DNA of 6,434 nucleotides, taken from IMG/VR virus record IMGVR_UViG_2703719368_000016. One strand, given 5' to 3'. The notes below the pieces were generated by a model. The model was not told the DNA's origin, did not search any database, and saw only the letters and a program-made list of their open reading frames with translations. The stretch comes from a virus. Lineage: Duplodnaviria; Heunggongvirae; Uroviricota; Caudoviricetes. Below, piece after piece: positions 870 to 5,565 of this stretch (position 1 is its first letter; every line of letters starts with the position of its first letter). Position numbers and translations under genes: made by a program.

Positions 870-1639
870 TCACTTTTCCGATACAACACGGCGGGAAGAA
901 TCAGTAATCTGTCGAACAATATCCCGGTGCTTGTTCAGCTCCCGCAGCGCGGCGCAGACTCGCTCCCACTTCTGAACATCACTTTTCGCCCTGCGCAGCG
1001 CCAGGTTTGCCCTGCGCAGGGACGGAAAAATCAGCTCATCTGCTTGCGTTTCGGTAAACGATGGCAACGGCTGCACAATGTCCGCCACAGTTTCTGTTTT
1101 AATTTCTTCCTGTGTTGCGGCTTCCCGGACTGGTAACGCAGCACCTGCTGGCTGAGGAAAGGCCTTACCATCATTTTTCGTTACCGGCGCGGCTTTCGGA
1201 TCTGCTGGTAAATTACCCCCCGACATGCAGTAACGAAATTTACCGTTCTGATTAACGCGTGCCAGCCGCCCCGTTGCGGTTACCACCGCCAGCGTGGAAG
1301 CAACCTTGCGAGTACTGACGCCGAACTTACCCGCCAGTTCCTCACACGTTTTAGCACCATCCTGACCGATAAACTCAACCATCATGTCTGCGGTAACTTT
1401 TGGAGCGACCTCTTCGGTTACCACATCCGGCGCTTCAGGTTGTAGTGCCTGCCCTTCGGTTACCCCGGCTTCACCTTCGACAGCCAGAAACCAGGTGTGA
1501 CCCGTTTTATCAACAACGCCATTTTTTTGAGTTCCCACAGTTCGTTAAGAACTTCTTCACGGCTGATATCAAGCCGCGCCGCCAGTTCAACAGAATTGGC
1601 TTTTCCCATCGCTTTCAGTGCATGCAATACAGTTTCCAT
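870..1639 (-). pseudogene. Tandem winged-helix protein gene interrupted by a frameshift at an A7 run (7 T on plus strand, 1522-1528); could be a sequencing error, a pseudogene or a slippage site
   Basis: ATG at 1639-1637 with GAGGT RBS gives [39 protein letters not shown], then reads on to a TAA at 1462-1460 (59 aa). The -1 frame continues [18 protein letters not shown]... for 217 codons to the stop at 872-870 (track ORF 870..1538, which begins at a GTG with no RBS). One extra A would fuse them into a 256-aa protein with a well-formed winged helix across the junction ([20 protein letters not shown]). A second wH-like unit follows (MMVEFIGQDGAKTCEELAGKFGVSTRKVASTLAVVTATGRLARV). Confidence 0.5.
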
Positions 1640-1664
1640 CGAAAATTTACCTCGTCAAAAATTC

Positions 1665-3396: not shown

Positions 3397-3822
3397 TTAG
3401 TGCATCACCACAGCATTCCCTGCCGGGCCGCCGCGATTCATCTGGTCATACAAAACAACCGCTGACGCAACAAAATCATCGACATCCTTCACCAGCCGAT
3501 CCCTCCGTTCGACGATCTCACGGTAATATTCAGAACTGTGGCTGCGCATACGGGCCACCAGCAAAGGCGGCATCGCCTTTTCGATCGCCGGTAACAGAGC
3601 CTGCATTTTTTCAACAGCATCAGGGGTGTCTTTATCCAGCCAACGGAAAATTTTCTGGGTATTACGGGCCAGGGCTTCCGGATGGCTGTCGTCATACAGT
3701 TCCGGGAACGTCATTCCCAGCTCGAAATACGCTTTGGTAATTTTCGCAGCCGGTACTTTTTCGCCGTCCGGATGCGCCCAGACATTCATCGCCATGCGGA
3801 TGTGTTCATGCTTGATTTTCAT
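3397..3822 (-). CDS. ydaT: YdaT-like protein (reported CII-like regulator of Rac/CP-933P-type prophages), 141 aa
   Basis: Complete ORF, N-terminus MKIKHEHI..., C-terminus ...VVMH. Its ATG (3822-3820) overlaps the stop of the upstream Cro-like gene in an ATGA arrangement. Family assignment is from memory of YdaT and from gene order, not from a search. Confidence 0.6.
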   Translation of the reverse strand: MKIKHEHIRMAMNVWAHPDGEKVPAAKITKAYFELGMTFPELYDDSHPEALARNTQKIFRWLDKDTPDAVEKMQALLPAIEKAMPPLLVARMRSHSSEYYREIVERRDRLVKDVDDFVASAVVLYDQMNRGGPAGNAVVMH

Positions 3823-4121
3823 GAATCAACTCCATCAGATAAGCATGCACTACAATCACCTTCAGCATGAACTACATGTGTTTGCCCCAAACGAATGCCG
3901 CTCGCATACTCAGGCCAAATAAGCTCCCAATCATGGGGTCGTAGCTCCGCCCTACTTACTTGGCCTTCCGTCGCAGATTCGATCATAAGGGCGCGGGTTG
4001 GAGATATAGCTGTTCGTCCAGACGCCATTTGCGATAAGTAAGATGGCGATACACCAAGTCTGGCCGCGAATTTCTTAGCATCACCAACCCTTAATGATTT
4101 AATAAACTCTTTTAATGTCAT
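3819..4121 (-). CDS. ydaS: Cro-like HTH regulator of the YdaS family, 100 aa
   Basis: ATG at 4121-4119 with GAGGAAGG RBS (revcomp of 4123-4130). HTH segment AKKFAARLGVSPSYLSQMASGRTAISPTRAL followed by an ELRPhDW motif as I recall for YdaS. Divergent from the repressor gene across an operator-rich intergenic region. Confidence 0.65.
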   Translation of the reverse strand: MTLKEFIKSLRVGDAKKFAARLGVSPSYLSQMASGRTAISPTRALMIESATEGQVSRAELRPHDWELIWPEYASGIRLGQTHVVHAEGDCSACLSDGVDS

Positions 4122-4218
4122 ACCTTCCTCGGTTTAGTGTTTTTTTGCGAGTTTAGTGTTTAATAAACCATTAAGTCAAGTATTTGCTTGTTTAGTGATT
4201 ACTAAAGATAATTACCAC
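4122..4218. promoter_or_regulatory. Divergent promoter/operator region (OR-like): PR-like promoter for the cro-like operon, PRM-like promoter for the repressor, repeated operator motifs
   Basis: GTTTAGTG at 4132-4139, 4151-4158 and 4190-4197. Near-palindromes GTTTAATAAAC (4158-4168) and TTTAGTGATTACTAAA (4191-4206). Minus strand: TTGACT (plus 4174-4179), 18-nt spacer, TAAACT (plus 4150-4155). Plus strand: TTGCTT (4184-4189), 17-nt spacer, GATAAT (4207-4212), ending 6 nt before the repressor ATG. Confidence 0.55.
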
Positions 4219-4590
4219 ATGCAAAAAAAAGAAATTCGCCGTTTACGTCTCAAGGAGTGGTTTAAAGATAAAACTCTGCCACCCAAAGAGAAGAGCTACC
4301 TATCTCAACTAATGAGTGGGAGAGCCTCGTTTGGAGAAAAGGCTGCCAGAAGAATAGAGCAAACATACGGGATGCCGGAAGGGTATCTGGATGCGGAATA
4401 CGCAGAACAACCGGGGGGTTCTCCACCACATGCAGGGTTAACGTCTAATCAACTGGAATTATTGCAGATTTTTTCAGCCTTCCCTGAGGATGAGCAACGC
4501 CAGATAATCAGCGAGTTAAAGCAGAAAAAAGAATCAATGGAAGATCTCATAGCGAGATGGATTGCGGCGCAAAAATGCCGCCGCGCCTGA
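4219..4590 (+). CDS. paaR2: CI-like prophage repressor, short form (123 aa) with N-terminal HTH and no S24 peptidase domain; PaaR2-like
   Basis: The track ORF starts at GTG 4156 with no RBS; I prefer ATG 4219 (MQKKEIRRLRLKEWF...), which sits right after a -10-like GATAAT and so implies a leaderless mRNA. HTH: KEKSYLSQLMSGRASFGEKAARRIEQTYGMPEGYLD. The C-terminal part is too short for a LexA-type autocleavage domain. Symbol given from recalled architecture, unverified. Confidence 0.65.
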   Translation: MQKKEIRRLRLKEWFKDKTLPPKEKSYLSQLMSGRASFGEKAARRIEQTYGMPEGYLDAEYAEQPGGSPPHAGLTSNQLELLQIFSAFPEDEQRQIISELKQKKESMEDLIARWIAAQKCRRA

Positions 4591-4610
4591 GTTATAAAAC
4601 CGGAGGAAAC

Positions 4611-4802
4611 ATGAATAGAGCCCTTTCACCAATGGTTTCTGAATTTGAAACCATTGAACAAGAAAACAGTTACAACGAATGGCTGCGTGCGAAAGTAGCA
4701 ACGAGCCTTGCAGATCCGCGCCCAGCAATTCCCCATGACGAAGTTGAGCGCAGAATGGCAGAACGCTTTGCTAAGATGCGCAAGGAACGGAGCAAGCAGT
4801 AA
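4611..4802 (+). CDS. paaA2: Type II antitoxin, 63 aa, partner of the ParE-family toxin; PaaA2-like
   Basis: ATG 4611 with GGAGG RBS at 4602-4606 (the track's 4557 start would overlap the repressor gene and has no RBS). Product MNRALSPMVSEFETIEQENSYNEWLRAKVATSLADPRPAIPHDEVERRMAERFAKMRKERSKQ. Stop TAA 4800-4802 lies one nucleotide before the toxin ATG. Confidence 0.75.
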   Translation: MNRALSPMVSEFETIEQENSYNEWLRAKVATSLADPRPAIPHDEVERRMAERFAKMRKERSKQ

Positions 4803-4803
4803 A

Positions 4804-5082
4804 ATGTTACCCGTGTTATGGCTTGAAAGCGCAGATACCGACCTAGATGATATAACTAGTTATATTGCTCGTTTCGACATAGATGCGGCTGAACGCTTAT
4901 GGCAGCGATTAAGGGGTTGTGTGCTGCCGTTATCCGAACATCCGTATTTATACCCACCAAGCGACAGAGTACCTGGCTTGCGTGAGATTGTAGCCCACCC
5001 TAACTATATAATTCTATACCGCGTAACAACATCAAGCGTTGAAGTAGTAAACGTGATCCACGCAAGACGCCAGTTTCCCTAA
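4804..5082 (+). CDS. parE2: ParE/RelE-superfamily toxin, 92 aa; ParE2-like
   Basis: ATG 4804, in frame with track ORF 4708..5082 but placed immediately after the antitoxin stop. The C-terminus ...HPNYIILYRVTTSSVEVVNVIHARRQFP matches the conserved ParE/RelE motif (Y-R-I/V ... I-x-R-V/I-x-H-x-R-R). The small, tightly coupled antitoxin-then-toxin order is typical of type II TA operons. Confidence 0.8.
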   Translation: MLPVLWLESADTDLDDITSYIARFDIDAAERLWQRLRGCVLPLSEHPYLYPPSDRVPGLREIVAHPNYIILYRVTTSSVEVVNVIHARRQFP

Positions 5083-5151: not shown

Positions 5152-5200
5152 CGGTTTAGTTTTTACTTGACTTAAGTTTAATGTTTATTAAACTAAAAAT
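5152..5200 (+). promoter_or_regulatory. Second operator/promoter copy (OL/PL-like, or PdicB-like) directing rightward transcription
   Basis: TTGACT (5167-5172), 16-nt spacer, TAAACT (5189-5194): the same hexamers as the PR-like promoter. Operator-like GTTTAGT at 5154-5160 and GTTTATTAAAC at 5183-5193, the latter the exact reverse complement of GTTTAATAAAC at 4158-4168. The block 5175-5194 matches 4150-4169 at 17 of 20 positions. Confidence 0.45.
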
Positions 5201-5489
5201 ACCAACCCACCCCGCCCCACAGAACGCAGGGAAATACTTCGAGTTACCCGGCAGTGGTCAGGGGTTAAGTAGCCAGCCCGAGGCGTATGAACATGACGGC
5301 AGGGTTCAACTTTAATAACTATGCAGCAGGTTTTTGTTCCGCTACCCCGGCGTTAAGGGGAAACAGAGGGTTTCTCAGTGGGCGAAGTCAAACATCAGAA
5401 TGGAAGGCATCCCGGGATCGGCAAAGAAGCAGCAATGGCGCTTTATATTGACATCAGCGCCATTGCAGGACAGGTAAGAGTTATCAGAG

Positions 5490-5565
5490 NNNNNNNNNNN
5501 NNNNNNNNNNNNNNNNNNNNNNNNNNNNNNNNNNNNNNNNNNNNNNNNNNNNNNNNNNNNNNNNN
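5490..5565. other. Run of 76 N (assembly gap or masked sequence)
   Basis: Literal n characters in the sequence. Any ORF crossing it is unreliable and true spacing is unknown. Confidence 0.99.

Follow-up and report, generated by a model that had tools for sequence, protein, structure and literature searches.

A one-base deletion in an A-run splits a DUF1627/YdaW-family gene of prophage Sp12/CP-933P in Escherichia coli O157:H7, probably leaving a clonally inherited pseudogene

Introduction

When a run of seven adenines breaks a prophage gene into two overlapping reading frames, the break may stem from a sequencing error, from a mutation that inactivated the gene, or from a slippage site at which one locus makes two products. 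We addressed this question for a split gene in a 6,434-nt stretch of viral DNA (IMG/VR record IMGVR_UViG_2703719368_000016, Caudoviricetes), referred to here at its full length as the window. A first-pass annotation, made from the letters of the window, had described a tandem winged-helix gene split by an A7 homopolymer and had held the three explanations to be equally possible.

Results

The window carries the early region of prophage Sp12/CP-933P

The window corresponds to the early region of a prophage of E. coli O157:H7, named Sp12 in strain Sakai and CP-933P in strain EDL933, and the 841 nt tested were 100% identical to dozens of E. coli O157:H7 chromosomes. Gene order on the minus strand was a ydaS-like gene (Cro analogue), ydaT, and genes for an O-like replication protein and a DnaC-like helicase loader, followed by the split gene, DUF977 and DUF551. 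The split gene thus follows the O-like and DnaC-like replication genes within the early rightward operon. The complete CP-933P/Sp12 immunity switch also lies within the window, with the split gene downstream of it in the same rightward operon (Table 1).

Asadulghani et al. (PMC2669165) scored the repressor and the integrase of Sp12 as disrupted and its recombination and morphogenesis as defective; no excision, replication or packaging of it was detected. A frameshifted accessory early gene is consistent with this decayed state. A later mBio study showed that the "repressor" region of Sp12 is a functional PaaR2-PaaA2-ParE2/YdaS/YdaT switch, experimentally bistable and addictive (PMC8630535), so that the early operon holding the split gene is under active control. 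The paaR2 gene is reportedly leaderless (PMC8630535). A second, longer homopolymer, an A8 run at positions 4223–4230 of the plus strand, follows directly after its annotated start (ATG CAA AAA AAA GAA). This run is in frame and intact, and marks a further place where indels or slippage could readily occur, in this case within a regulator gene.

Elsewhere in the window, a run of 76 Ns occupied positions 5490–5565. Its flanks are 162 nt apart in EDL933, so the run represents a longer stretch, and it masks most of the 3′ part of a small ECs_2282-family putative zinc-binding gene (minus strand) together with adjoining downstream sequence. Further differences from EDL933 occurred at roughly 5330–5350 and 5170–5190. 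In 472, AUSMDU00002545 and PNUSAE151637, an IS3-family (IS1203/IS629-like) insertion of ~1.3 kb was present in the paaR2-to-DUF1627 region, and IS-bearing O157:H7 strains gave two-piece matches with a 5054-nt span. For PNUSAE151637, the run length was taken solely from this span, in which the strain agrees with 472, a carrier of A7.

Table 1 Coordinates of the split gene and of the neighbouring immunity switch, counted from the first letter of the window.
Feature	Position	Strand	Basis or role
DUF1627/YdaW-family pseudogene, whole, 770 nt	870..1639	minus	RefSeq annotation, Pfam PF07789, intact orthologues
Upstream ORF, 59 aa (ATG 1639, stop 1462-1460)	1639..1460	minus	ORF list
Downstream ORF, 222 aa (listed from GTG 1538)	1538..870	minus	ORF list; Sakai hypothetical protein ECs_2274
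A7 homopolymer (T7 on plus strand)	1528-1522	minus	Read from sequence; site of 1-nt deletion relative to ancestral A8
GAGG, Shine-Dalgarno-like element, 10 nt upstream of ATG 1639	1650..1653	minus	Read from sequence
ydaS and ydaT, Cro and CII analogues	3397-4121	minus	Prophage immunity switch
paaR2-paaA2-parE2, three-component toxin-antitoxin system with CI-like regulator	4156-5082	plus	Divergent immunity/toxin-antitoxin module

The A7 run divides a single DUF1627/YdaW-family gene

Re-reading of the window bore out the first-pass annotation as to the split itself, and the coordinates and codon counts it had given (59 aa, 20 codons, 217 codons, 256 aa) were all correct. The zero-frame codons at the run are GAA CTG TGG GAA CTC AAA AAA ATG GCG TTG (minus strand). 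The 59-aa ORF consists of METVLH...ELWELKK plus 20 out-of-frame codons, the frameshift falling at codon 40 and translation stopping 20 codons later. Insertion of one A produced a single 256-aa ORF that ran for 217 codons further, to a stop at 872-870, which is the intact form of the gene (771 nt, 256 aa). Past the shift, the downstream frame was fully open and, in alignment, 100% identical to the intact protein of O157:H7 strain PV15-279. A search between the two ORFs found no internal promoters or terminators. The GAGG element upstream of the start codon is, judged by its sequence, the putative normal translation start signal of the gene. The window contains four A/T runs of at least 7 nt, and the A7 run is statistically unremarkable alone; it gains meaning because the joined ORFs give a full-length family match and because intact 771-nt homologues are one A longer at this point.

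The frameshift is already known, having been recorded by NCBI's annotation pipeline. The RefSeq entry for the same locus in EDL933 (EDL933_RS12290, 100% identical sequence) is a pseudogene labelled "DUF1627 domain-containing protein, frameshifted". The older Sakai annotation holds just the 222-aa downstream ORF (ECs_2274) and leaves the frameshift unmentioned, and a literature search for ECs2274 found nothing.

The repaired protein matched the Pfam family DUF1627 (PF07789) over the entire profile (positions 1–155 of 155; E = 7.5e-100; 331.6 bits against a cut-off of 28.1), and homologues in phage records are labelled "YdaW family". The DUF1627 domain covers residues 91–245 of the repaired protein, falling within the 222-aa downstream ORF, which also includes a long C-terminal helix. 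Residues 3–52 gave a sub-threshold match to HTH_11 (24.3 bits, cut-off 25), with DeoR-type and MarR-type models also just below threshold, and PF08279 is a precomputed assignment in many homologues. Residues 87–134 likewise gave a sub-threshold match to FeoC (20.5 bits, cut-off 21) and a weak one to HTH_PafC. An AF2 model of low confidence (mean pLDDT 50.7), derived from a shallow input alignment of 20 sequences >83% identical, contained three-helix units at residues 4–39 and 84–122 and a C-terminal helix at 197–255, with the wings not modelled. Profile searching of PDB sequences returned weak matches to the winged-helix domains of MntR and Z-alpha (E 0.05–0.6), which align the wing to a 13-residue stretch of the repaired protein.

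The "tandem winged helix" of the first-pass annotation is thus a plausible and reasonable description, although unproven and weakly shown: the sub-threshold HTH matches, the two low-confidence AF2 units and the weak PDB winged-helix matches speak for it. In the model, helix 3 of the first predicted HTH unit ends at ~residue 39, and this is where the frameshift occurs. The 59-aa product would retain the three N-terminal HTH helices (residues 1–39) and lose the wing.

The gene family is mosaic. Many E. coli homologues matched the 3′ half alone (query positions 391–841), which indicates independent recombination of the DUF1627 part and the N-terminal HTH module. Among homologues, either DnaC-type or lambda-P-type replication genes precede the DUF1627 gene. 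One record, PP818812.1 ("Actinobacillus phage vB_Apl-pPE4", host Actinobacillus pleuropneumoniae), has a DUF1627 gene that shares 83% DNA identity with the split gene and has lambda-like neighbours. This similarity is unexpectedly close for a Pasteurellaceae phage; the phage may in fact be of E. coli type, or its host may have been misassigned.

Among the genomes sampled, A7 is confined to one clade of O157:H7

We searched an 81-nt probe carrying A7, and the matching A8 version, against genome records. Exact matches to the A7 probe were found in 287 complete genomes, including Sakai and EDL933, sequenced independently in many laboratories, and exact matches to the A8 probe in 164 genome records. 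Run-length alleles were surveyed by identity bands, record spans, evenly spaced row samples and a best-first A8 query. All exact A7 matches sampled evenly down the ranking (26/26) were O157:H7-type genomes. Non-identical matches spanned 82 nt, the A8 length, in 34 of the 34 sampled, and 80 or 83 nt in none of them (0/34). Neither A6, nor A9, nor A7 on other backgrounds was found among the homologues sampled.

We also used a 3742-nt query that began at paaR2, ran through the whole gene and had the A8 run restored, and ranked its matches best-first. At the top of the matches listed, with a 3742-nt (A8) span, were PV15-279, LSU61 and F3113, all O157:H7. The remaining O157:H7 among the matches listed, including Sakai, EDL933, TW14359, EC4115 and Xuzhou21, were otherwise perfect with a 3741-nt span (6903 bits). 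In the stepwise evolution model, the beta-glucuronidase-positive lineage that includes PV15-279 stands apart from typical O157:H7 (PMC6256406), and F3113 clusters with PV15-279 by pO157 plasmid phylogeny (PMC10758439). LSU61 is a presumed evolutionary intermediate of clade 9 (PMC7175801) and has been termed ancestral (PMC10758439). On these published lineage assignments, and across the rows listed and sampled, the derived A7 allele was confined to one clade with A8 in the outgroups; this distribution rests on the matches listed, and rare A8 revertants or independent A7 alleles are possible among other genomes. Two run-length states were seen in the sampled rows, and their distribution fits a single transition with no scattered changes.

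Comparison of A7 with A8 in homologous prophages, which the first-pass annotation had put forward as a check, found A8 and an intact gene in PV15-279, F3113, LSU61, O103:H2, O55:H7 and PhiR5_2. In PV15-279, the gene (WP_000450876.1) is an intact, single 771-nt ORF with A8, the repaired window protein is identical to its product in alignment, and the products of the neighbouring prophage genes are the same as those of EDL933. The same gene in O103:H2 strain 129 (WP_000450874.1) is an intact 771-nt A8 copy at 99.8% identity with identical neighbouring proteins, in contrast to the A7 run and two ORFs of the window. Both copies are flanked, as in the window, by the identical DnaC-like protein WP_000788938.1 and DUF977 protein WP_001118159.1. 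Near-identical intact A8 genes were also found in O55:H7 and in PhiR5_2, and for the latter A8 versus A7 was the sole indel in the alignment with the window.

Conserved recoding signals are absent from the A-run

Ten homologues (753–771 nt) were read at the nucleotide level. Each had a single ORF (10/10), with A8 in five and the run absent from the other five. Homologues with an interrupted run read AAAAGAAAT (Lys-Arg-Asn), AAAAGAAAA (Lys-Arg-Lys) or GAAAAAGGCT (Lys-Lys-Ala), and AAAAAGGCT was also read at the run position in intact homologues. As intact homologues interrupt the run, it is not a conserved signal. Across the family, there were 2240 homologous protein clusters, and most of the best 120 were 251–256 aa in length.

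The zero-frame motif is C_AAA_AAA followed by ATG, where the canonical motif would be A_AAA_AAG. A −1 shift on C_AAA_AAA would allow perfect re-pairing in the A site, and the P-site tRNA would re-pair on CAA at 2/3 bases. Downstream RNA structure over 52, 82 and 122 nt was no better than in dinucleotide shuffles (z = +0.28, −0.17 and −0.93, respectively). No Shine-Dalgarno element was found 10–14 nt upstream of the run, just a GGGA 4 nt before it, which is too close and hence wrongly spaced for −1 stimulation. In many bacteria, selection against A/T runs is evident at about 9 nt, and functional slippage uses 9 nt, sometimes 8 (PMC1088944); at 7 nt, the run is below the ~9-nt length for transcriptional slippage. 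A programmed −1 slippage site yielding two products, as the first-pass annotation had suggested, is therefore not supported, given an unconserved and short run, a non-canonical motif and no stimulator.

Discussion

A clonally inherited pseudogene best explains the split

The most probable explanation, to which we assign a probability of roughly 0.87, is that the locus is a real, clonally inherited pseudogene arising from one A8-to-A7 deletion. The indel is real and restricted to one clone, its ancestral state is A8, and no conserved recoding signals accompany it. The ancestral site would have read CTC AAA AAA AAT (Leu-Lys-Lys-Asn), containing an A8 tract that probably lost one A by replication slippage in the ancestor of typical (beta-glucuronidase-negative) O157:H7. 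By the published lineage assignments, this deletion would postdate the splitting off of the beta-glucuronidase-positive and LSU61-like lineages. It would have shifted the frame where the predicted recognition helix of the first HTH unit ends, and the A7 allele would have been inherited clonally thereafter. A single event in the ancestor of typical O157:H7 is the simplest history, and it too rests on those lineage assignments.

The default product is presumably the 59-aa fragment. A small full-length fraction may also arise by chance, either when tRNA-Lys slips by −1 on C_AAA_AAA or when RNA polymerase inserts an extra A, and we found no evidence of selection maintaining such read-through. One counterpoint to a pseudogene is that the frame downstream of the shift shows no secondary decay of the kind that would prove loss of function. 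This is tempered by the youth of the clone and by the 3.7-kb region being invariant anyway.

Weighing the alternatives

The three readings that the first-pass annotation had placed on an equal footing fared differently. The inactivating mutation in a cryptic prophage gained support from A8 in early-branching O157:H7 and other serotypes, from the RefSeq "frameshifted" label and from the defective state of Sp12, whereas programmed slippage went unsupported. A homopolymer error in sequencing or assembly, with a true sequence of A8 and an intact gene, has a negligible likelihood. Homopolymer miscounts are common in some sequencing chemistries and the intact homologues differ by exactly one A, but the A7 81-mer is identical in the 287 complete genomes from many laboratories, which effectively refutes an error. 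Moreover, early-branching O157:H7 genomes show A8 at the same locus, and the difference follows lineage, not laboratory. It is also highly improbable that the run is an A8/A7 contingency locus, at which replication slippage would drive reversible phase variation of the YdaW-like protein. Both lengths do occur in the same prophage within serotype O157:H7, and A/T runs are hypermutable (PMC1088944). Nevertheless, one event fits the data, with A8 in three early-branching strains and A7 in all typical strains listed. The A7 strains listed are otherwise identical over 3.7 kb, the samples held no A6, A9 or A7 on other backgrounds, and seven or eight bases are short for an efficient switch.

A different possibility is that A7 is leaky but functional, such that the 59-aa HTH fragment and some 256-aa protein form a mixture that is biologically used, through programmed recoding or selected down-tuning. 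Either a −1 shift or one A added to the mRNA would regenerate the exact ancestral protein, and the downstream frame is undamaged. In E. coli, C_AAA_AAA within pDEST17 attB1 gave 25–60% apparent −1 frameshifting with no obvious stimulators, verified by Edman sequencing and mass spectrometry (PMC1851650). In addition, E. coli genes contain fewer AAAAAAA heptamers than expected in every frame, a deficit attributed to transcriptional slippage or indel mutation (PMC4066793). By analogy, it is physically plausible that adventitious −1 read-through occurs to some extent at C_AAA_AAA, and the amount of full-length product from A7 may be appreciable. Against a functional role, the pDEST17 values stem from T7-driven overexpression, while A_AAA tetramers without a stimulator gave about 0.15% frameshifting versus a 0.11% background in a lacZ reporter (PMC4066793), and counter-selection due to transcriptional slippage is evident only from ~9 nt (PMC1088944). 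The split arrangement occurs in one clone only, all other homologues examined being single ORFs, the A-run is unconserved among them, downstream structure is not evident and the GGGA is wrongly spaced. Taken together, we regard a functional leaky allele as unlikely. The more specific proposal that A7, fixed in typical O157:H7, gives a set ratio of the 59-aa wingless HTH fragment to the full-length YdaW-like protein, a dosage favoured in this lineage, appears very doubtful.

Implications

The value of a clonal pseudogene at this locus lies mainly in annotation hygiene, as what Sakai lists as ECs_2274 is the tail of a DUF1627/YdaW gene broken by a frameshift. The A7 allele also serves as a lineage marker that tells typical O157:H7 apart from two early branches, the beta-glucuronidase-positive and the LSU61-like. 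If the allele were leaky, it would offer a natural case of indel "correction" by ribosomal slippage on a non-canonical C_AAA_AAA under native expression, and hold moderate interest for the recoding field. A favoured dosage, if true, could for example tune the early operon controlled by PaaR2/YdaS/YdaT, or provide an anti-defence activity like that of Rac ydaW.

Comparison with known systems

Programmed A-run cases resemble the window in that Lys-codon A-runs join two overlapping frames and the shifted product is a fusion. They comprise E. coli dnaX and the IS1/IS3 transposases, as well as slippage on runs of A9 or longer in Thermus dnaX, Shigella mxiE, IS elements and Citrobacter rodentium tssM (PMC4256274). 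Such sites are conserved, use canonical heptamers or runs of at least 9 and usually have flanking stimulators (PMC4066793, PMC1088944), none of which applies to the A7 run. In E. coli dnaX, for instance, A_AAA_AAG is accompanied by a Shine-Dalgarno element and a stem-loop. The pDEST17 attB1 site (Belfield et al. 2007, PMC1851650) also resembles the split gene: in E. coli, the same heptamer in the same frame (xxC AAA AAA) lacks an obvious stimulator, and there too a −1 shift repairs a 1-nt deletion. However, pDEST17 is an artificial construct overexpressed from T7, its run is A6 and its shift was shown experimentally, whereas in the split gene an A7 run is followed by ATG and expression would be native.

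In the Rac prophage of E. coli K-12, YdaW is the product of a homologous early-region gene that follows the replication genes, and is a putative MarR-like/winged-helix DNA-binding protein; the K-12 copy of ydaW differs in length from the O55:H7 copy (PMC9308461). Overexpression of Rac ydaW, like that of certain other prophage genes, blocked the retron-Sen2 toxin RcaT in a TIC/TAC screen (bioRxiv 10.1101/2020.06.22.160242). This block hints at an anti-defence role for the otherwise uncharacterised YdaW family, to which the intact form of the split gene belongs.
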